This document shows, one piece after another, positions 5,245-34,200 of a stretch of DNA of 64,000 nt. Origin of the DNA: Escherichia phage A73; sequence record OP778609, one strand, 5' to 3'. Position 1 is the first letter of the stretch. Each line of letters opens with the position of its first letter. Both the position numbers and the translations under genes were made by a program. The notes below the pieces were generated by a model. That model was given only the letters and a program-made list of their open reading frames with translations, did not search any database and was not told the DNA's origin.

Positions 5245-6240
5245 ATGCATAATGGTGATTTTCAAATCCTGGATTACACTGGCCTGATCTCTACTCTGCC
5301 GCGTGTTGATACCCTGCTTCAAAGCATGAACCTGTTCACTGAGAACTTTGGTCGTACCACTATCGCTAAAATCGAACGTCGTGATGACGGTGCTGGTCAG
5401 ATCAATGCTGTACAGCGTGGTAGCGTTCGTCAGCACCTGGGTAATGATCGTAAAAAGATCGTCAACCTGAATATCCCGTTCTTCCCTCTGGACCGTTCCA
5501 TTGACCGTGCTGATATCCAGAACTTCCGTGAATTCGGTACTGAAAATGCTCCGGCAACTGTTGAAGCTGAAGTAGCTCGTCACCTGGCTCGTATCCGTCG
5601 TAGTCATGCGGTTCTGAAATCCAAGGCAATGTACGCTGCTCTGAAAGGTACTTCCTGGTCGCCAAATGATCCGGTTTGTGATTACGACTACTACGATGTT
5701 TGGGGTGTAACCCAGCAGACTGCTGATGTTGACTTCACCTCTCTGGCTGTTGACCCGATTGAAGTGCTGGAAGCTGAAGCTCGTGCACATATCATCGATT
5801 ACGCAGGTGATCAAGGCGACAACTACGAGATCGTTGTTATGGCATCCCGTCAGTGGTTCTCTGCTCTGATTTCTCACCCGCAGGTAACTGGTGCATACTC
5901 TCAGTATCCGTCTACTCAGGAAATCCTGCGTCGTCGTCTGGGCGGTAATGCTAATAACCGTATCTTCGAACACAAGAACATCCTGTTCATCGAAGACATT
6001 TCCGGTAACATCCCTGCTGGTGAAGCATACATCTTCCCTCGTGGTATCGATCGTATGTTCGAAATCTATTACGCGCCGAGCGACACTCTGGAAGGTGCTA
6101 ACCAAGTAGCTCAGGAACTGTATGTATTCTTCAAAGAATCTCAGTACCTGCGTGAAGCGAAGATCGAATCTGAAACTTCCTTCCTGACTGTTAACAACCG
6201 TCCTGAACTGGTAGTTAAGTCTGTTGGTAAGTTTGAGTAA
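5245..6240 (+). CDS. Major capsid protein (lambda gpE-like family)
   Basis: 331 aa; strong AAGGAG RBS; followed by a strong terminator. Contains AALKG...DPV-type segment recalled from E-family capsid proteins. Confidence 0.7.
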   Translation: MHNGDFQILDYTGLISTLPRVDTLLQSMNLFTENFGRTTIAKIERRDDGAGQINAVQRGSVRQHLGNDRKKIVNLNIPFFPLDRSIDRADIQNFREFGTENAPATVEAEVARHLARIRRSHAVLKSKAMYAALKGTSWSPNDPVCDYDYYDVWGVTQQTADVDFTSLAVDPIEVLEAEARAHIIDYAGDQGDNYEIVVMASRQWFSALISHPQVTGAYSQYPSTQEILRRRLGGNANNRIFEHKNILFIEDISGNIPAGEAYIFPRGIDRMFEIYYAPSDTLEGANQVAQELYVFFKESQYLREAKIESETSFLTVNNRPELVVKSVGKFE

Positions 6241-6255
6241 TCTTAATAACTAATT

Positions 6256-6287
6256 AAAGGTCACCTTCGGGTGGCCTTTTTTATTAT
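6256..6287 (+). terminator. Rho-independent terminator after capsid gene
   Basis: aaaGGTCACCttcgGGTGGCCtttttt: 7-bp stem with one G-U pair, UUCG loop, T-run. Confidence 0.7.
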
Positions 6288-6364: not shown

Positions 6365-6949
6365 ATGTCTAAGCAAACTCACTTGGAAGTCTTTAAGAGT
6401 GAATATCACATGCTCAAGTTCTTTGGTGAATATCTTGAAAAACTTGATGTAAACACCTCTGCACGTTTAGGTGCATTCCTTTATAGTTACGACGGTAAAC
6501 TGGTTCTTGCTCGTGGACTTTACGATTTCCTAACCCAAATGGAAAAGATGACCGCTCTCGGCATCGATACTCTGGCTTCTGCACAAAAAGGTACAAGTTT
6601 CTTAGTGTTTTTCAAAGAGAAACCTAAAGACCCTTTAAAATTTCGATTAGATGTTAAGAAAATCGAGGCTGTTAAAGAAGCTATCGTTGCTGACACCCCG
6701 TCTAAGGTAATGGAAGAGTCTGTTCTTGTCAATACCAAAGTTGAAGAAGTAGAAGTAAAGGCAGAATCATCTGACCGTACTGAAGAAGAAAAAGCACAGA
6801 TCTTGACTAAAGCTGAAGAACTGCGTGATGACAGCAAAAAGGCTGCATCTAAGGCTGCATTGGAAGCTTTCGCTGTGGAATATGGTATTTCACTGAGCAA
6901 AGGCAAAACCTTTGATGGGATGCTTGAAGATTTAGCTGCTGCACTATAA
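6365..6949 (+). CDS. Hypothetical protein, acidic C-terminal half
   Basis: 194-aa ORF with GGAG RBS between capsid and collagen-like genes; no recognisable motif. Confidence 0.45.
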   Translation: MSKQTHLEVFKSEYHMLKFFGEYLEKLDVNTSARLGAFLYSYDGKLVLARGLYDFLTQMEKMTALGIDTLASAQKGTSFLVFFKEKPKDPLKFRLDVKKIEAVKEAIVADTPSKVMEESVLVNTKVEEVEVKAESSDRTEEEKAQILTKAEELRDDSKKAASKAALEAFAVEYGISLSKGKTFDGMLEDLAAAL

Positions 6950-7002: not shown

Positions 7003-10000
7003 ATGGCTGAATATAATGATAAGGTCGTGGAAGCATTCGTTACTGCCCCAGATCCTGTCGTAACTACCACTGGTGGTGGAGTTATTTTTGACGGTATTGA
7101 AACAGAAGATACTGTATCAACCCTGCTGATTGGTGATGGTACTGCATCCTCCCCTTTACAAGCGCAAGTCAAACTTTCTCGCCGTGCTGGTAACGCCCTG
7201 ACTATCGTTCAATCCGATACCGAGCAAGGCTTGTTTGCTACTGCCGGAGATGCTAAAGTTTCAGCTTCTCAAGTGAACATTGCAAAATACGTAACTGCGG
7301 AAGAAGCTGCTGCACAAGGCGATGCAGGTCTGGAAGGTATTTTGGTAGAGCCTGTCCATGCGACCACCACCGCAGTTGGCGATGCCTTGGAAATTACCGC
7401 AGATCCTTTGACGGCTAAAAAATCCCGCATTTCCCTGAAAGTTTCCCCTTCCGCAACCAACGCGTTATCTGTAGAGTCAGATGGATTGGCAGTTAAAGTC
7501 TCTCCTGCCGTTGACAACAGCCTGCAAGTCCGTGAAGGTGCACTTTACGTAGCTCCTGTTGGTGCTGATATTTCTCAAGACCCAGGTAACAAACTGGAAC
7601 AGCGTTCAGATGGACTGTTCGTAGAAACCATCAAAGGCGACAAAGGTGATCAGGGCGAGCAAGGACCAGAAGGTCCTCAAGGCCCAGCAGGGGAAGCTGG
7701 ACCTGCTGGACCACAGGGTGAAAAAGGCGACAAAGGCGATCAAGGTGAAGTCGGCCCTGCTGGCGCAACTGGCCCTGCTGGCCTGACTGGTGCAACTGGT
7801 CCTCGTGGTATAGAAGGACCTCGTGGCCCTGCTGGTATTGGTATTAATATCCTAGACACCCTTGCATCTGAAGACCAATTACCTTCTGTTGTTGATCTTT
7901 CGAATGGGGATACCTATGTAATAGGACAGAGTTTCTTTACCGTTATCACTGAAGGTGGTATCAAACAATGGAGAAACGTAGGTAACTTCGCTGGACCTGA
8001 AGGTCTTTCTGCATTTGAAGTTGCTGAAACCGCAGGCTTTGTTGGAACAGTTGATGACTGGTTGGCTACCCTTCGTGGTGCTGATGGAATCGGTCTGCAA
8101 TTACTCGGTTCTTTCCAACGAATTGAAGACCTTCCGGCAGAAGAGAACAACCCAGGCGATGCCTACATCATTCAAGAAAAGATGTATGTTTGGACTGGTG
8201 ATACAGATGGCTGGCAACCTGTAGGACAGATCGGTCCTGAAGGTCGTTCTGCTTATCAGGTCTGGCTGGCTAACGGGAACGTAGGTTCTCAGCGTGAATT
8301 CCTTGAATCACTGAAAGGTGAGAAAGGTGATACTGGCGATCAGGGTCCTCAGGGTATCCCAGGTGCAGATGGTAAAAATGCTAACGCCATTAATATCTTA
8401 GGTTCCGTTGCAGATCAGGCGAGTTTGCCAGAAGGTGCAGATGCAGGTGATGCTTACCTGATCGGTACTAACGTATTCGTTTCTGATGGTGCTGGCAACT
8501 GGCAAGACTTGGGATCTTTCCAAGGTCCGCAAGGTCCTACTGGTGCTAAAGGCGACAAGGGGGACAAAGGGGACAAAGGTGACAAAGGCGATAAAGGTGA
8601 TGACAACTATGCCATCGCAGTTGCTAACGGTTTCCAAGGATCAGTAAATGAATACCTTGCATCTATCAAGGGTGAGAAAGGTGACGTTGGTGCAACTGGC
8701 CCTCGTGGATTAGCTGGTCCACAAGGTGAACAAGGTCCTGTTGGTGCGGGTCTGAATATCCTTGGCTCAGTAGCTTCCGAAGACCAATTGCCTCAGACTG
8801 GTATTAGTGAAGGTGATGCTTATCTGATTGAAGCTGATCTTTATATCTTTACTGGCGGTCAGTGGACTAACGTTGGTAACATCAAAGGTCCCCAAGGGGA
8901 TGTAGGACCACAAGGTCCACAAGGTCCTATTGGTCTGACTGGTGCACAAGGACCGCAGGGTGCAACAGGGGCACAAGGTCCTGCTGGTCCCCAAGGTGAG
9001 ACTGGTCCACAAGGTGGTATTGGTCCACAGGGCGAGACTGGCGAGAAAGGTGACAAGGGCGATAAGGGTGATAAGGGTGATACTGGAATTGGTATCGTTG
9101 CTCGTGGTATTGTTGCAACTCAAGAAGCACTTCCTGCCGATGCCACCACTGGTGACTTCTACGTTGTAGAGTCTGAAGGTAATGGTTATGCTTGGGACGG
9201 CACTGCATGGGTACTGACTGGTCTTACTCGTGGACCTCAGGGTCTGAAGGGCGACAAAGGCGACACTGGTGAGAAAGGAGACAAAGGAGACAAAGGCGAC
9301 GCAGGTGATGCACTGAAGCTGAAAGGTTTGGTTGCAACCTCCGCTGAACTTCCTTCTACTGCTGAATTAGGTGACTTCTACGTAGCTGAAGACACTGGAA
9401 TCGGTTACGCTTGGGATGGCGTGGAATTCGTTTCTGCCGGAACCGTTAGAGGACCGCAAGGTGAAGTAGGGCCTCAGGGTGAAATTGGCCCTCAAGGACC
9501 GCAAGGCGAGAAGGGAGATGCTGGCGACCAAGGACCTCAAGGATTGGTCGGTGAAACAGGTGCAAAAGGTGATAAAGGGGATAAGGGTGACGTTGGCTCT
9601 GGTCTGATTCCGAGAGGAACTTTACCGTCTCAAGCAGACCTTCCTCAAACTGGTGAAGTTGGTGACTTCTACGTAGCTAACGATACTGGTATTGGATATG
9701 CTTTTGACGGAACTACATTCGTAGAAGCTGGCGTTGCCCGTGGTCCACAGGGTGAACAAGGACCTCAGGGTGAACAGGGACCTCAAGGTCTTAAAGGGGA
9801 TACTGGTGAAACAGGTGCTCAGGGACCTCAAGGTGCTCAAGGTGAGAAAGGTGATACCGGAGAACGTGGAGAGGTAGGTCCGCAAGGTGATCAGGGACCG
9901 CAAGGTGAGCAAGGTCCTCAGGGTGATATCGGACCAGGTGTAGAGATCATTGGACGATTTGATACCTCTGATGAATTACCTTCCACGGGTACTTTGGGTC

Positions 10001-10803
10001 AAGGTTACCTTATCCAAGGCGACTTCTGGGGTTGGACTGGTGCAGCATACGAGAACTTGGGTCGTATTCAAGGTCCGGTTGGACCAGTAGGTCCTACGGG
10101 TGACCAAGGACCACAAGGCCCTGTCGGTAACAAAGGCGATAAAGGCGACCAAGGGACCCTTTGGGTAGTTTTTGCTCGTGCACCAATGGTGAGCGATGGT
10201 CGTGTTAACGACCTGTACCTCAACTCTTCCACTCTGGAATATTACCGTAAAACTTCCGCAACGAACTGGGCACTGCTCGGATTCTTAGGTGGTGGTAACG
10301 TGTATGACGCACCAGGGGACGGAAAGCTGTATGTCCGTACTGATGGTGGTTGGGTTGAATTACCTACCGCAGAAGTTCTGGAAGCACCTCGTGATGGTAA
10401 CCAATACGTCCGTAAAGACGGCGCTTGGACAACTGTTACAGTTCCTGTAACGGAAGCACCACTTGAAGGTGGATTCTACGTCCGTGAAAATGGTGCGTGG
10501 GTTAAACTGGATCAGTACGATTTACGTGTTGTTGCTTCAACTGGTGCAATTGATGCAAGCTCTGGTAATGCTTGGACTTTAGATGGTACAACCAACAAGT
10601 CCTTGACTATCACCGGATTGCCAGCAGGAAGGGCTAAAACCATAGTTTTACGATTCACGGGTAACGGTGGTCAGATTAACTGGGATAGCCAGATCGCTTG
10701 GTCTAACGGAACAGCACCTACTCTCGGGGCTACTCGCACTATCCTAACCTTGTTCTGGGATGGTGAGTTCCTGACGGGTACTCAAGCAATGACTATAGGT
10801 TAA
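7003..10803 (+). CDS. Collagen-like repeat fibre protein
   Basis: 1266 aa; AGGAG RBS. Eight Gly-X-Y tracts alternate with ~40-aa modules (LP...GD[AF]Y[LV]...W...G); C-terminal globular region with three YVRxDGxW repeats. Confidence 0.8.
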   Translation: MAEYNDKVVEAFVTAPDPVVTTTGGGVIFDGIETEDTVSTLLIGDGTASSPLQAQVKLSRRAGNALTIVQSDTEQGLFATAGDAKVSASQVNIAKYVTAEEAAAQGDAGLEGILVEPVHATTTAVGDALEITADPLTAKKSRISLKVSPSATNALSVESDGLAVKVSPAVDNSLQVREGALYVAPVGADISQDPGNKLEQRSDGLFVETIKGDKGDQGEQGPEGPQGPAGEAGPAGPQGEKGDKGDQGEVGPAGATGPAGLTGATGPRGIEGPRGPAGIGINILDTLASEDQLPSVVDLSNGDTYVIGQSFFTVITEGGIKQWRNVGNFAGPEGLSAFEVAETAGFVGTVDDWLATLRGADGIGLQLLGSFQRIEDLPAEENNPGDAYIIQEKMYVWTGDTDGWQPVGQIGPEGRSAYQVWLANGNVGSQREFLESLKGEKGDTGDQGPQGIPGADGKNANAINILGSVADQASLPEGADAGDAYLIGTNVFVSDGAGNWQDLGSFQGPQGPTGAKGDKGDKGDKGDKGDKGDDNYAIAVANGFQGSVNEYLASIKGEKGDVGATGPRGLAGPQGEQGPVGAGLNILGSVASEDQLPQTGISEGDAYLIEADLYIFTGGQWTNVGNIKGPQGDVGPQGPQGPIGLTGAQGPQGATGAQGPAGPQGETGPQGGIGPQGETGEKGDKGDKGDKGDTGIGIVARGIVATQEALPADATTGDFYVVESEGNGYAWDGTAWVLTGLTRGPQGLKGDKGDTGEKGDKGDKGDAGDALKLKGLVATSAELPSTAELGDFYVAEDTGIGYAWDGVEFVSAGTVRGPQGEVGPQGEIGPQGPQGEKGDAGDQGPQGLVGETGAKGDKGDKGDVGSGLIPRGTLPSQADLPQTGEVGDFYVANDTGIGYAFDGTTFVEAGVARGPQGEQGPQGEQGPQGLKGDTGETGAQGPQGAQGEKGDTGERGEVGPQGDQGPQGEQGPQGDIGPGVEIIGRFDTSDELPSTGTLGQGYLIQGDFWGWTGAAYENLGRIQGPVGPVGPTGDQGPQGPVGNKGDKGDQGTLWVVFARAPMVSDGRVNDLYLNSSTLEYYRKTSATNWALLGFLGGGNVYDAPGDGKLYVRTDGGWVELPTAEVLEAPRDGNQYVRKDGAWTTVTVPVTEAPLEGGFYVRENGAWVKLDQYDLRVVASTGAIDASSGNAWTLDGTTNKSLTITGLPAGRAKTIVLRFTGNGGQINWDSQIAWSNGTAPTLGATRTILTLFWDGEFLTGTQAMTIG
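8548..8601 (+). repeat. Tandem 9-bp coding repeat (Lys-Gly-Asp units) inside collagen-like gene
   Basis: aaaggcgac aagggggac aaaggggac aaaggtgac aaaggcgat aaaggtgat: six near-identical 9-bp units; similar tracts near 9043-9084, 9249-9300, 9559-9590. Confidence 0.8.
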
Positions 10804-10848: not shown

Positions 10849-11484
10849 ATGGTGATCGATAAGATTTATGGCTGGACCCCCATGATCCGCATGTCTGACA
10901 TGCGTTATCCGGTATACCTGGCCGACTACCGTGCTGAATATCCTAACGTATCTATTGGTAGCTTTGTTTACGCTGTCGGTATGGCTGAAGTTGGATATCA
11001 TGCGGTTTATGATGTACCGATGCCGCAAGGTGATGTTGTTACGGAAGGACTTCCAGAATTACGAGAAGACGGTTTCTGGTACAGAACTTGGAACGTTAGA
11101 GATTTCACCGAGCAAGAGATTGCCGATAATCTTATCCGTGAAAAAGAGCAACGCATCAATGAAGCTCGAATGGTTCTAGATAATGAAAGATCTGAGGGTG
11201 TTTTTGTATCCGGTAAAAGATATCAATCCGACGCTCAAGCTTTTACTTATTACAGTTCTATCTCTGCTGTTGCTAAAGATTCACCTGAAGGTGTTTTTCA
11301 CTTAGTGACCTCTGACAATCAGGTGGAGGAATTTTTTGGTGATGACGTTATTGTCCACATCAAAGAAATTCAAAAAGTAAATGCAAAAATTTACGATGAG
11401 TTTGCTAAAATTGTAAAAGTTATCCGCGAAGCAAAATCCCCTGAAGAAATCCCTCAAGTTCCTCCCTCGTTCCAAAATATCTAA
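10849..11484 (+). CDS. Hypothetical protein between the two collagen-like genes
   Basis: 211-aa ORF with AAGGAG RBS; no recognisable motif. Confidence 0.45.
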   Translation: MVIDKIYGWTPMIRMSDMRYPVYLADYRAEYPNVSIGSFVYAVGMAEVGYHAVYDVPMPQGDVVTEGLPELREDGFWYRTWNVRDFTEQEIADNLIREKEQRINEARMVLDNERSEGVFVSGKRYQSDAQAFTYYSSISAVAKDSPEGVFHLVTSDNQVEEFFGDDVIVHIKEIQKVNAKIYDEFAKIVKVIREAKSPEEIPQVPPSFQNI

Positions 11485-11516
11485 TTAATCTTCTAACGTA
11501 ACAGAAGGATGTAAAA

Positions 11517-13100
11517 ATGAGTAAAAGTATTAGCGGAATGGCAGGTCATAATAACGGTGTTTTTTACGGAAATGCCTTTTATGATTTAGAAAGAAAGGTT
11601 AAAATGGATTTTAAAGATATCATGGAAAAAGGTGATTCCAGCCAAACACCTGGTCCAGAAGGACCACAAGGACCAAAAGGGGATACTGGTCCTACCGGAC
11701 CTGTAGGCCCACAAGGTGATACCGGACCTCAGGGACCTGCGGGTTTTCAGGGTCCTGCGGGTTTTCAGGGTCCTGTTGGGGAGACAGGCCCTGCTGGCCC
11801 TGAAGGTAAAGAAGGACCCCAAGGCCCTCAAGGGGAGCAAGGTGTGGCTGGACCCACTGGACCTAAAGGTGATACTGGCGATCAGGGTCCTCAAGGAGAA
11901 CAAGGTCCTCAAGGTATTAAAGGGGACACTGGTGAACAGGGTCCTGCCGGACAAGAAGGACCAATAGGTCCAACTGGACCGACTGGCCCTGCCGGACCAA
12001 AAGGGGATGTTGGACCTCAGGGACCTAAAGGTGAAACTGGACCTCAGGGACCTATAGGACCACAAGGCCCTCAAGGGGATGTTGGCCCTGTAGGACCAGC
12101 AGGACTTACTTTCCGAGGTTTTTATGATCCTTTAGTTGAATACTCTCAGAACGATACTGTATCTTACAACGGATCTACTTATTTTTCCTTAAGAACAAGC
12201 ACAGGCGCTAGTCCAGACACATCACTTGAAGATTGGTCTTTATTGGCAGCAGAGGGAGCAAGAGGACCAGCAGGCCCTACAGGCCCTCAGGGACCTAAAG
12301 GCGATCAGGGTGAGATTGGTCCTGCCGGAGCTACTGGTCCTGAAGGTCCAATAGGTCCAACTGGCCCAACTGGCCCTCAAGGCCCTCAAGGGGATAAAGG
12401 AGATAAAGGAGAGGCTGGTCCTCAAGGACCTAAGGGTGATCAAGGGGTCAGAGGAGAACAAGGTCCACAAGGAATAACTGGGTCTACTGGCCCTGCTGGT
12501 CCGCAGGGGCCTAAAGGTGACAAAGGGGATGCAGGTCCTCAGGGTTTGGATGGGGCAACTGGATCAACTGGCGCTCAAGGCCCTCAAGGCCCTCAAGGCC
12601 CTCAAGGTATTAGAGGGGCAACTGGTCCGCAGGGGCCTAAAGGTGAAACTGGTGCTACCGGCCCACAGGGTCCAGCAGGTCAAAATAATACAAACAATCC
12701 AGTTTATACAACTCAACTTTCCGTATCGACAAGCTACTCAGCTATAGCTATACCAAACAACCCTGGCATCTCTTTTTCAGTCAGAAGGGTTGGGAATAAC
12801 ATTGAGTACTCTTTTATAGGCAACTCAATTGCAGGAAGGTATTTTGATGTTGAGGTTGTAAACTTTCCATCTGCTAACGTAGTTAAGAGATATCAGGCAA
12901 ATCACACAATTGCAGGAACTAGCAGGTATGTTGTAGGTGATCCTGCGGGTTATACTGGTGGAGGATATAAAAGGATTCAATTCTCAGCTAGAGATTGGGG
13001 AGATAAAAACATTATAATGATTGATGTTTTTCATCTTCAGCGCCCATCTGATACTAGTTTTAACATCGCCATTAGGATTGAGACATTCAAACTCCCTTGA
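11517..13100 (+). CDS. Collagen-like protein with C-terminal globular domain
   Basis: 527 aa; ~150-residue uninterrupted Gly-X-Y tract, short globular insert, second Gly-X-Y tract, then ~140-aa non-collagenous C-terminal domain. Confidence 0.8.
12575..12607 (+). repeat. Tandem 9-bp coding repeat (Gly-Pro-Gln units)
   Basis: tcaaggccc repeated about 3.5 times within the collagen-like gene. Confidence 0.75.
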
Positions 13101-13105
13101 TAATA

Positions 13106-13135
13106 AAAGCCACCCTCGGGTGGCTTTATTTTTAT
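13106..13135 (+). terminator. Rho-independent terminator
   Basis: aaaGCCACCCtcgGGTGGCtttatttttat hairpin plus T-run. Confidence 0.65.
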
Positions 13136-26385: not shown

Positions 26386-28020
26386 ATGGCTAGACCAACA
26401 ACACCGATTGTTGTCTTTGCGGCACAAGATGTTAACCTTCCTGGTACTGGAAGACCTAACAAATCAAAACCGATTGATGACCTTTTAGCAAAGGGCTATG
26501 ACAAAGGGCAAAAACCAGCGGCAGAAGAATTCAACTATATTCTTCACCAGTCTGGTGCTTGGCTTAATTGGATCGTAGAAGAGAAGTTTCCAGAGGTTGA
26601 AGAAGAATACAAGCGACTGATTCAGGAACTCGAAACACGAGTAAACAATCAACTGGAAGTTATTCGTGAAGATGTTGCGAACGTAAGACAATCTGTTGCA
26701 ACCTTAAGAACTTATGTAGAGCAGACTGTTGCAGATCTTCGTCGTGAGATCACTGCTGTTGATCAGCGTGTTACTCGTTTGTCTCAAGACTTGGATAATG
26801 CTGTTTCCAGATTGAACTCCCGTATTGATGAGCTTGAGCCTCGTTTAGTTCCGATCGGTGCAATCTTAACTTGGGCGGGTCAAACACCGCCAGCGGGATT
26901 TTTGGAATGTAATGGACAAGTGTTCAGTACATCTCAAAACCCACGACTGTACCAAGTTCTAGGACGAAACGTAGTTCCTGATTATCGTGGATTGTTCCTT
27001 CGTGGATGGGCGCATGGATCTGGAGCTTACGATCCTGACTCCGGTCGTGGTTTAGGTTCTATCCAAGGCGATGCAATTAGAAACATTACGGGTGTAATGG
27101 GTTACGAAAGTATTCGTACTGACCACGGTTATCGTGAACAAGGTGCGCTTTATACGCAATATAACTCAAATTCGGGTCCTGACCACGATCGTAAAAACCC
27201 AGCGGGTGATGTTCGATTCGATGCGAGCCGTGTAGTTCCGACAGCACCGGAAAACAGACCTAAAAACGTCGCAGTAATGTACATTATCAAGACTGACCAG
27301 GCACAAGGTACTGGAAGTCTGTCACCAACGGCACTTGTTACTACACCAGATAGCATTACAAACCGTGTAGGTTTTACCCGAGGTATCTCAGCACAGGTTC
27401 TCCCTGCAAACTTGGCGAGCCAATATCCTGTGACATGGACCTCTCAGAATGGTAATGTTGCAACCGTAGATAGTGCAGGTAATGTGAGATTAACTGGACC
27501 AGGTGAAACTAACATCATCGCCTCTATCTCTACAGGTATATCAGCACAGGTTAAAATAGTTTCATACACACCATTGACAGCGATCAGTATCGGTAGCATC
27601 CCCAATGTGGAAGTTAACGACTCTGAAATAATCCCTGTTAATAGAACACCTGCGAACTCTAATGAACCGCTTGTGTATTCCACCAGTAATGCTAACGTTG
27701 CTGTCGTTACACAAAGTGGATATGTATCGGGTGTTGCTCCAGGTACTGCTGTTATTACTGTTCGTGGATCTATTACGGGAATCCAAGCAACAAGGCAGGT
27801 TACAGTTATTCCAGCCGTAGTTGTTCAAACTATCGAAGATGTTCGTTTAGGTATTGAGCAACAAACGACAATGAATGGGGACAACTATACCAGTCCTGTA
27901 CGTGCTCCGGCAGGTTGCGTAATCACTGGTGTTGTTTCAGCGGGGCTTGGATTAAACCAAGGTTATTACAAACCAATCCAGAAGCGTATGTCTGGCGTAT
28001 GGGTAACGGTGGAGGGCTAA
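26386..28020 (+). CDS. Tail fibre protein with collar domain and Ig-like repeats
   Basis: 544 aa; tail-collar motif GAILTWAGQTPPAGFLECNGQVFS...YRGLFLRGW; C-terminal region with two Big_2-like Ig repeats. Confidence 0.75.
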   Translation: MARPTTPIVVFAAQDVNLPGTGRPNKSKPIDDLLAKGYDKGQKPAAEEFNYILHQSGAWLNWIVEEKFPEVEEEYKRLIQELETRVNNQLEVIREDVANVRQSVATLRTYVEQTVADLRREITAVDQRVTRLSQDLDNAVSRLNSRIDELEPRLVPIGAILTWAGQTPPAGFLECNGQVFSTSQNPRLYQVLGRNVVPDYRGLFLRGWAHGSGAYDPDSGRGLGSIQGDAIRNITGVMGYESIRTDHGYREQGALYTQYNSNSGPDHDRKNPAGDVRFDASRVVPTAPENRPKNVAVMYIIKTDQAQGTGSLSPTALVTTPDSITNRVGFTRGISAQVLPANLASQYPVTWTSQNGNVATVDSAGNVRLTGPGETNIIASISTGISAQVKIVSYTPLTAISIGSIPNVEVNDSEIIPVNRTPANSNEPLVYSTSNANVAVVTQSGYVSGVAPGTAVITVRGSITGIQATRQVTVIPAVVVQTIEDVRLGIEQQTTMNGDNYTSPVRAPAGCVITGVVSAGLGLNQGYYKPIQKRMSGVWVTVEG

Positions 28021-28022
28021 TT

Positions 28023-32930: not shown

Positions 32931-34166
32931 ATGATCCCTTTTCCAATTATTAATTTCGGTGGCGGTGTTCCACTACCTGTAGGCGTTACAATCAAGTATG
33001 CAGTAAGTACCAGCACCGGAAATATTTTTATTCTGCTTACCAATGGGCATCTATATGTAACCGGATCTAATTATCTAAACGGGCTTGGTAAAACAGGGAC
33101 CACAAATAATGCAACTTCGGGATGGTCACTTACTAACACAGGTGTTGAAGAAGTTTATGAGGTAGGAACAGAAAGTACACTGTACGGCGGTGTGTGGGTT
33201 AAGAAAAATAATAACCACTATGAATATATCTCTGCCGTAGTCTTTCCCACTGTTGACACAACTCTCCAAAACAGTTGGAACGTCTTGCCTGAATCCGCAT
33301 ACATCGTTGATGGTGTAAATATCTTATCTTCAGCAATACAAATAGCCAGATCATACGCGATCCAACCCGACGGCACTGTTTACAGACTGCTTCCAGAGGG
33401 GCCGCAAGTAGCTTGGCCTGAAAAAACAAAATACCTGTATTTTGCAAACTATAATGCCATTCGTGTCGAGGTGGATGGGACTTTAAAATACCGAGGCGAC
33501 AATGGTGTAGATCAAGTGGCAGGCACTTCTGCCGGAACAACATTATCAACTTGGACAACCATCGGGGATTCTTCTGTAAGGTATATTAGGGCAAAATGTG
33601 CTCGTGGTCAAGTGGCTAACACGAGTGGCGGTTCAGGTGCTCAATCTATTGTACTTGTTGTTGCACAGAGGGAAGATGGGTCATGGGATGCAGTTGGATC
33701 GACAGCAAGAGCAGGGATAAACTCAACCAACGTCCTCGGTCCTAATTTAGCACCTATGACAAGCATACCTGCGGGGGTTGAAGTTTATGTCACTAACCAG
33801 GTCAGTTATACAAACGCAAGTGTGGGAACAAGGGGAGCATTGCAAGTGTTCATCTCCGATAGGGTTAATGGCATCTATCAATCAACGGGTGGACAAGGTG
33901 GATACACCTATTCTTTATTTAGGAATCTTTCTATAACCACTAATGCAACATCTTTCGATAATATATCTGAAGATATTATAAACGATGGTGGTATCCTTCA
34001 CATGACGGGTTCATTATCCGATACTTTCAAAGTGATTGTTAGTGGTAATGGTAATCTTTACTGGACAGGGAGAGGATATTCAGGGGCTATGTACCCTGCT
34101 GACTTTACGGCCTCTAATACGATAGCTCAGAAGTTTAACTTGGAAGGTATAGTTATTCCAGCATAA
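32931..34166 (+). CDS. Putative distal fibre/adhesin protein
   Basis: 411-aa Gly/Thr/Ser/Asn-rich ORF with AGGAGGA RBS; last gene of the + strand block, after the long fibre. Confidence 0.4.
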   Translation: MIPFPIINFGGGVPLPVGVTIKYAVSTSTGNIFILLTNGHLYVTGSNYLNGLGKTGTTNNATSGWSLTNTGVEEVYEVGTESTLYGGVWVKKNNNHYEYISAVVFPTVDTTLQNSWNVLPESAYIVDGVNILSSAIQIARSYAIQPDGTVYRLLPEGPQVAWPEKTKYLYFANYNAIRVEVDGTLKYRGDNGVDQVAGTSAGTTLSTWTTIGDSSVRYIRAKCARGQVANTSGGSGAQSIVLVVAQREDGSWDAVGSTARAGINSTNVLGPNLAPMTSIPAGVEVYVTNQVSYTNASVGTRGALQVFISDRVNGIYQSTGGQGGYTYSLFRNLSITTNATSFDNISEDIINDGGILHMTGSLSDTFKVIVSGNGNLYWTGRGYSGAMYPADFTASNTIAQKFNLEGIVIPA

Positions 34167-34200
34167 AGAAAAGGCGCTCAAATGAGCGCCTTTATTTTTA
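34165..34200. terminator. Bidirectional terminator at strand switch
   Basis: aaagaaaaGGCGCTCAaaTGAGCGCCtttattttta: 8-bp stem flanked by A-run and T-run, between convergent gene blocks. Confidence 0.75.

Follow-up and report, generated by a model that had tools for sequence, protein, structure and literature searches.

The gp12 protein of phage SPP1, which has about 64 residues and few Gly-X-Y triplets, has its gene beside the capsid gene, within the head module. It forms a collagen-like trimer at the hexamer centres of the capsid and is dispensable for stability (PMC7602432, PMC5292684). It was also the only protein that our search of the literature on long collagen-like head fibres returned, and the structure papers on phi92 and Bas63 contain nothing on collagen-like fibres. 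Collagen stalks of another kind are found in E. coli prophages, where EPclA and EPclB represent a side-tail-fibre type with the order PfN-PCoil-Col-Pf2-Col-PfC, and where EPclA was shown by experiment to have a collagen-type circular dichroism spectrum and to be a trimer (PMC3368898). Here, we analysed a stretch of 64,000 nucleotides from Escherichia phage A73 (OP778609), referred to below as the window, and within it the gene W70_129, an open reading frame (ORF) at positions 11517-13100 on the + strand that encodes 527 residues from an ATG start. The window is 100% identical to the corresponding part of Escherichia phage W70 (OP778610.1, 137 kb, Vequintavirinae), for which the genus Septuagintavirus has been proposed, and positions in the window are those of the W70 record. 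From its gene neighbourhood and its N-terminal anchor we infer that W70_129 is probably, though by no means certainly, a trimeric collagen-like head (capsid) fibre and not a tail fibre.

W70_129 recalls SPP1 gp12 in being collagen-like and in its proposed hexamer-centre site, but it carries an N-terminal anchor, 99 triplets, a knob resembling CBM5/12 modules and a 137-residue beta-sandwich tip, whereas gp12, compared here by its published description, has an N-terminal collagen motif and a helix-rich C-terminal part (PMC5292684). The role that we propose resembles that of phi29 gp8.5 (3QC7, 6QVK), a trimeric capsid fibre thought to aid cell attachment; gp8.5, however, occupies quasi-3-fold positions, is built from a helix-turn-helix supercoil instead of collagen and shares no module with W70_129. 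T4 Hoc is a non-essential, exposed and variable protein of the hexamer centre, for which adhesion to bacteria or mucus has been proposed, and relatives of W70_129 in T4-like phages adjoin Hoc-like genes. Hoc, however, is a monomer of immunoglobulin-like domains with a C-terminal capsid-binding domain, without collagen and without sequence similarity to W70_129. Bacillus anthracis BclA and the C1q/TNF-type proteins share with W70_129 a Gly-X-Y stalk and a C-terminal globular, beta-rich head projecting from a surface. EPclB is close in layout, with two collagen domains, a small Pf2 repeat between them and a trimerising C-terminal domain (PMC3368898), but W70_129 has no Pfam match to PfN (PF08400), PfC (PF06820) or Pf2 (PF03406) and stands in a head gene context.

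An AAGGA ribosome-binding motif, read from the sequence, lies 7 nt before the ATG of W70_129 (11505-11509, +). The computed layout of the protein, all on the + strand, comprises an N-terminal anchor (residues 1-45; 11517-11651), a first collagen tract of 51 uninterrupted Gly-X-Y triplets (153 residues, 46-198; 11652-12110), a 48-residue insert (199-246; 12111-12254), a second tract of 48 uninterrupted triplets (144 residues, 247-390; 12255-12686) and a 137-residue C-terminal domain (391-527; 12687-13100 with the stop codon). An earlier note on this DNA had described a tract of ~150 residues, a short insert, a second tract and a C-terminus of ~140 residues, and the computed lengths of 153, 48, 144 and 137 residues agree with it; its stalk-plus-globular-head architecture also holds, with a knob between the two stalks and a beta-rich head at the C-terminus. 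The collagen match (Pfam PF01391, E=1.3e-47, 159.8 bits for a cut-off of 27.2 bits) is far beyond chance. Proline occupies 63% of the X positions in the first tract (52-63% over both tracts) and none of the Y positions, a composition that we take to be the bacterial and phage style of collagen. If triple-helical, the two tracts would measure ~44 nm and ~41 nm (0.286 nm per residue). W70_129 is a collagen-like fibre of ~90 nm with an exchangeable tip, borne on the particle. By analogy we infer that it forms a trimer, the experimental demonstration concerning EPclA and not W70_129 (PMC3368898).

At the DNA level, W70_129 contains short partial repeats only, of 9-45 nt, and no simple tandem array. 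Long ORFs overlap both collagen tracts in other frames or on the other strand (11586-12074 and 12240-12470 on the - strand, 11716-11967 and 12517-12747 on the + strand); these are presumably by-products of the GGN-CCN periodicity and not genes.

The presence of W70_129 in purified W70 virions is documented by 728 spectra in electrospray ionisation tandem mass spectrometry and by a visible band after sodium dodecyl sulfate polyacrylamide gel electrophoresis, and the authors labelled it a 'virion structural protein of unknown function' (PMC11370258). Absence from particles, which the earlier note would have counted against its reading, thus does not apply, and we counted its abundance in favour of a location on the head. 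In GenBank the gene is named 'side tail fiber protein Stf', and its best PHROG matches are named 'tail fiber protein'; the matched part is the collagen region, and neither residues 1-45 nor residues 391-527 matched any PHROG family. A Pfam scan (E<=0.01) returned Collagen and a weak CBM_5_12 match only, with no PF08400 or other tail-attachment domain. As far as sequence comparison can tell, the 'tail fibre' name derives only from the similarity of collagen repeats.

The anchor provides the closest connection of W70_129 to a capsid site. In the cryo-electron microscopy study of phage phiTE (Certrevirus), gp217 is putatively assigned to the 'Pagoda', an unmodelled density at the hexamer centres, on the grounds that it ranks fifth in abundance among the virion proteins, its index of 79,432 being exceeded only by those of the capsid, decoration, sheath and tube proteins (PMC11972413). 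The study describes the density as lacking order at its base, as if bound in several rotated positions, and as unequal on two hexamer classes (PMC11972413); a disordered base would suit a trimer seated on a six-fold site. The capsid proteins of W70 and phiTE are 90.6% identical. A hidden Markov model of the W70_129 anchor motif gave E<1e-22 within the family. Profile-profile comparison with hhalign of the N-terminal ~35 residues, taking W70, A7_1, LTH01, CR3 gp011, Kosakonia 305 and VR26 on one side and gp217, CB7_12, CR3 gp010, PVP-SE1 gp67 and 4MG gp065 on the other, yielded a probability of 94% and a P of 9e-8. In the shuffle control, the real score of 32.7 compared with a mean of 8 (standard deviation 1.8, maximum 17) over 400 column shuffles. 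The anchor is thus homologous to the N-termini of phiTE gp217, CR3 gp010, PVP-SE1 gp67 and 4MG gp065. W70_129 is the only ORF of the window with this anchor, and HMMER found no separate Pagoda homologue among the window's ORFs.

The proteins that share this anchor differ in what it carries. Beyond its anchor, gp67 of PVP-SE1 (Seunavirus) matches the solved head fibre of phi29 (3QC7/6QVK; E 4e-13 and 2e-12), a phage decoration protein (9D82), head-fibre proteins of crAss001 and PHROG 'head fiber protein' families, so that Seunavirus proteins in the slot of W70_129 combine the W70-type anchor family with a phi29 head-fibre C-terminal module; gp065 of 4MG is annotated 'head fiber protein'. In CR3, the Pagoda-type anchor of gp010 runs straight into 9 Gly-X-Y triplets, and the gene lies in tandem with that of the W70_129-like gp011. 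Like W70_129, gp010 therefore carries a collagen tract, though a short one, and it bridges the short and long forms found at this place. The phiTE gp217 protein, in contrast, has 164 residues, no collagen and a different globular body, W70_129 being three times longer and ending in another tip. Several of these observations argue for a head location: the assignment of the syntenic gp217 to hexamer centres in a phage whose capsid protein is 90.6% identical, the anchor common to gp217, CR3 gp010 and PVP-SE1 gp67, the phi29-like remainder of gp67, the bridging form in CR3 and the absence of a competing Pagoda homologue from the window. If this location is correct, the W70_129 family would suggest which kind of protein forms the unmodelled phiTE density and provide a motif for its anchor.

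The position of the gene points in the same direction. W70_129 is the last of four genes, W70_132-131-130-129, bracketed by two strong intrinsic terminators. The upstream one (6256-6279, +; 10-bp stem with 5 GC pairs and a T-run) follows the major capsid gene, whose stop is at 6240, and the downstream one (13106-13127, +; 9-bp stem with 5 GC pairs and a T-run) follows W70_129 and is succeeded by a head-completion gene and then by neck genes. W70_129 accordingly lies outside the tail-fibre locus, on the stretch that separates the capsid and head-completion genes, and what comes after it is the terminator and the head-completion gene instead of a tail-fibre assembly gene. That it closes a terminator-bracketed unit starting right after the capsid gene argues for a head protein.

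The same unit is found in related genera. In phiTE it comprises genes 214-215-216-217, with annotated terminators at both corresponding places, and in PVP-SE1 the corresponding genes 70-69-68-67, with an annotated terminator after the syntenic last gene; gp217 and CR3 gp010 share with W70_129 this last place in a unit that follows the capsid gene and ends at a terminator. The first gene, W70_132 (6365-6949, +), is 55% identical to phiTE_214. The orthologue of phiTE_215, with 60% identity over the first 628 residues, is W70_131 (7003-10803, +), a protein of 1266 residues in which 129 triplets are distributed over nine Gly-X-Y tracts and which also has three foldon-like motifs. W70_130 (10849-11484, +; 211 residues, phrog_4998), the orthologue of phiTE_216 (39% identity), is a conserved companion of the gene for the large fibre, in several jumbo phages as well as in Certrevirus and Seunavirus. 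W70_129, W70_130 and W70_131 are all virion proteins, W70_131 giving the most spectra (PMC11370258). While the W70_131/W70_130 pair is conserved, the last gene alone varies among these units: it encodes the 164-residue gp217 in phiTE and CB7, a protein of 84-99 residues in PVP-SE1 and 4MG, proteins of 103 and 456 residues in CR3, and collagen proteins of 527-565 residues in W70, A7_1, UPEC06 and LTH01. The collagen-fibre module that the earlier note saw between head and neck genes thus does exist, with its 1266- and 211-residue members as described, but it is conserved in these genera and is not an insertion specific to W70.

Relatives of W70_129 in other phage families, identified by a shared C-terminal domain, also lie mostly among head genes. 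In Drexlerviridae (MM01, AugustePiccard, AN_ECEAS), the order is portal, protease, cement protein, a variable gene, collagen protein and capsid protein. In the T4-like phages VR26, JS10 and Kosakonia 305, the relative follows gp24 and directly precedes Hoc-like genes. This adjacency to capsid, cement or Hoc-like genes supports a head location, for which SPP1 gp12, a collagen-like trimer at hexamer centres, is a precedent. The variability of W70_129 and the exchange of its tip are as expected for a ligand-binding surface.

Several points weigh against a capsid location. No image or structure places W70_129 on the capsid, and the phiTE assignment that serves as the reference is itself putative, being based on mass-spectrometric abundance for a density that was not modelled (PMC11972413). 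The anchor homology is remote and emerges from profile-profile comparison only, the HMMER profile-to-sequence search leaving the W70_129 anchor undetected in phiTE gp217 (E=1). The same anchor is also found in T4-like phages with a capsid protein of unrelated sequence, an occurrence hard to square with specific binding to W70/phiTE hexamers; the anchor may therefore serve for trimerisation or attach to a partner, such as the Hoc-like protein encoded next to it. With one 90-nm fibre per hexamer, the 120 hexamers would carry a very large corona. The placement in head modules has an exception in the podovirus PAS7, whose copy lies among lysis genes beside a tailspike gene. Finally, the portal is a conserved dodecamer, present in 12 copies. 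In W70 it nevertheless gave more spectra than the sheath (467 and 311; PMC11370258 data), so that spectral counts do not track copy number and abundance does not separate head from tail; an estimate of the copy number of W70_129 from these counts was dropped for the same reason.

If W70_129 is a head fibre, its ~40 N-terminal residues would anchor the trimer at the centres of major-capsid-protein hexamers, the site equivalent to the phiTE 'Pagoda'. The collagen helices of ~44 and ~41 nm, with the CBM5/12-like knob between them, would then hold the beta-sandwich head ~90 nm off the shell, where this head, and perhaps also the knob, could bind a glycan on the host surface or in its surroundings. 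Such binding would enlarge the capture radius and let the phage make a first, reversible contact before its baseplate fibres come into play, a role already proposed for the head fibres of phi29, for T4 Hoc and for SPP1 gp12. The tip would act as an exchangeable cassette, replaced by recombination inside the collagen-coding repeats.

The 48-residue insert looks like a small module of the CBM5/12, chitin-binding type, on the basis of weak Pfam and profile matches. Its match to CBM_5_12 (PF02839) has an E-value of 1.2e-3 and a score of 19.3 bits, under the curated cut-off of 26.2 bits, and an equally weak match was obtained for the Bas01 relative. When a profile of 12 inserts was compared with PDB sequences, chitin-binding modules of chitinases and chitin deacetylases filled 19 of the first 21 rows, at marginal E-values of 2e-3 to 0.16. 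In the alignment of these 12 family members, Y20 and W51 are invariant.

The C-terminal domain was modelled with AlphaFold2 as a monomer, from an alignment of 11 sequences. The model, an all-beta sandwich of ten strands, reached a predicted local distance difference test score (pLDDT) of 81.3 and a predicted template modelling score (pTM) of 0.79. Foldseek comparison of the model with the PDB gave nothing at E<=1e-3, and a phmmer search of PDB sequences with the domain gave a best E-value of 0.06. Among predicted viral structures, the fold recurred only at the C-termini of other phage proteins (template modelling scores of 0.54-0.78), in Kosakonia phage 305, JS10, Aeromonas phage 65.2, BECP10, where the protein is called 'collagen-like protein', and Tenacibaculum phages; these fold searches brought up no ligand on record. 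Neither C1q (PF00386) nor TNF (PF00229) was matched in the Pfam scan of W70_129 (E<=0.01). The earlier note had likened the C-terminal domain to the C1q/TNF/BclA heads; the fold comparison, run on the predicted monomer, does not place it in that family, and the ten-strand jelly-roll fold of C1q/TNF/BclA was ruled out by the fold searches.

An exhaustive HMMER search recovered 13 representative relatives of the C-terminal domain, from which we conclude that the tip family is small; a word-indexed protein search, with either the single sequence or a profile, recovered almost nothing. Of the scans of IMG/VR, one gave a single locus, on a 47,112-bp contig, and another gave none.

Comparison of close relatives revealed that the tip is exchanged. 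Among 32 structural and packaging proteins compared between W70 and A7_1 (1-34167), 30 are 91-100% identical, the exceptions being W70_129 (56%) and the tail fibre W70_112 (26387-28021; 68%). In A7_1 the whole W70_129 ORF is replaced by an equally long allele. UPEC06 retains ~85% DNA identity up to 12545 and then continues into a third, very different tip. The DNA of the W70 tip (12639-13096) is 96.5% identical to that of the Rogunavirinae siphovirus MM01, and an Autographiviridae podovirus has a copy with 86% identity to the tip protein, a distribution drawn from tblastn searches. As the junctions (~12545-12639) fall inside the second tract, the collagen-coding repeats appear to act as recombination sites. 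No match to the W70 tip DNA was found in 5,426 complete E. coli genomes, so the tip is not carried by the prophages of those genomes.

Allele and tip swapping among close relatives is typical of receptor-binding proteins and also fits what we consider a rather unlikely alternative, namely that W70_129 is a side or lateral tail fibre on the baseplate or tail, whose C-terminal receptor-binding tip helps to set the host range. The GenBank and PHROG names agree with this, as do the PAS7 copy beside a tailspike gene, the thin flexible fibres seen at the tail by transmission electron microscopy and the position of the gene just upstream of neck and tail genes. Plaque formation on strain 311IE2-3 also separates A5-4 and A7-1 from W70 and A73 in the published phage comparison; according to the authors, W70_129 is not among the proteins shared with A5-4 and A7-1 (PMC11370258), and in our reading of this statement its distribution follows the plaque split. 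W70_112, however, also diverges between the phages, so that the difference in host range cannot be pinned on W70_129. The names derive from the collagen repeats, both non-collagen ends being free of PHROG matches, and W70_129 has neither a tail-attachment domain such as PF08400 nor a tail-fibre assembly gene after it. Tail-fibre loci are expected downstream of the tape-measure gene. The Drexlerviridae and T4-like relatives are found in the head module and not there. Besides a short and a long fibre, moreover, the phiTE baseplate map includes a third candidate fibre, described as 'previously annotated', and none of the three is named gp217 (PMC11972413); the third candidate would be gp215.

A second alternative would place W70_129 neither on the capsid nor on the baseplate, but at the neck or collar as a whisker, or as a branch attached to W70_131 through W70_130. 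It would explain how one anchor serves phages with unrelated capsid proteins, the Hoc-like gene that is always adjacent in T4-like phages then being a possible adaptor. It is also compatible with the co-transcription of W70_129, W70_130 and W70_131 and their joint presence in virions, with the place of W70_129 directly before head-completion and neck genes, with the fibritin-type foldon motifs of W70_131 and with the conservation of the 131/130 pair beside a varying last gene. Yet W70_130 has no sequence similarity to the Hoc-like neighbours of the T4-like relatives, and, in the passages of the phiTE study examined here, the neck is described as a narrow connector, with no mention of 'whisker' or 'collar', while the abundance of gp217 fits hundreds of copies and not 6-12 attachment points (PMC11972413). 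We therefore regard a neck or branch position as improbable. It is more improbable still that W70_129 sits on the capsid without being an adhesin, stabilising or spacing particles (for example against aggregation) with a tip that varies through immune or defence evasion or neutral drift: the lack of a recorded ligand for the C-terminal fold would be in line with it, but the exchange of the tip at 96.5% DNA identity between unrelated coliphages sharing a host species and the conserved CBM5/12-like knob, which points to carbohydrate binding, speak against it.

W70_129 itself was already deposited and known in particles; what is new is the argument that it, together with proteins named 'tail fibre' in three phage families, is probably a long collagen-like head fibre with a swappable tip. 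Should W70_129 be a head fibre, collagen-like decorations, known so far from the small SPP1 gp12 alone, would be extended to fibres longer than the capsid radius, and capsids, not tails alone, would carry modular, horizontally exchanged adhesins. With such 'hairy heads', recognition of host or mucus would gain a second layer, borne on the head and evolving by cassette exchange like the receptor-binding proteins of tails. A 'tail fibre' family would then have been misread in host-range prediction for E. coli phages and in the engineering of receptor-binding proteins, including for phages of the BASEL collection and therapy candidates. If it is a tail fibre, W70_129 would be unremarkable as a collagen-type fibre apart from the new fold of its tip. 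More broadly, we suggest only tentatively that its family represents an unrecognised class of very long collagen-like capsid fibres (~40-90 nm), with lineage-specific anchors and horizontally exchangeable lectin-like tips, systematically mis-annotated as tail fibres in at least three unrelated groups of virulent enterobacterial phages (Vequintavirinae, Drexlerviridae and T4-like Straboviridae).

In Drexlerviridae and in PAS7, the N-termini of the family take other forms. The Drexlerviridae collagen proteins (L002:5873-6200; L011:5963-6300) begin with a domain of ~110 residues matching DUF1737 (PF08410, E=5e-6) instead of the W70-type anchor, and the PAS7 copy has a short basic N-terminus only. 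Anchors thus appear to be lineage-specific, the stalk and tip being shared across families. Just upstream of the collagen gene of AugustePiccard, bas01_0009 (L011:4591-5880), whose annotation reads 'putative head outer capsid protein', has a lipase-acylhydrolase domain of the GDSL/SGNH type (PF13472, E=4e-13) and is possibly a capsid-displayed esterase. In CR3 (L014:3632-5357), the tandem proteins gp010 (103 residues) and gp011 (456 residues) have related N-terminal anchors, and one may speculate that the two paralogues partition between the two hexamer classes.

The neighbours of W70_129 gave further observations. Residues 1101-1169 of W70_131 (10303-10509) contain three tandem foldon-like motifs, the middle one, EAPRDGNQYVRKDGAW, being nearly identical to the T4 fibritin foldon; all PDB matches of these motifs are fibritin or engineered foldon fusions. 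W70_131 is a natural collagen-plus-foldon protein, a combination otherwise built artificially by protein engineers. W70_132 does not appear in the virion mass spectrometry table as quoted (PMC11370258) and, being missing there, may serve in assembly without forming part of the structure. Its C-terminal 45 residues match weakly the PHROG family 'minor head protein inhibitor of protease' (E=1.6e-5). Further downstream, at ~34000-34200, the GC skew changes sign and gene orientation switches from + to - at the end of the structural module.

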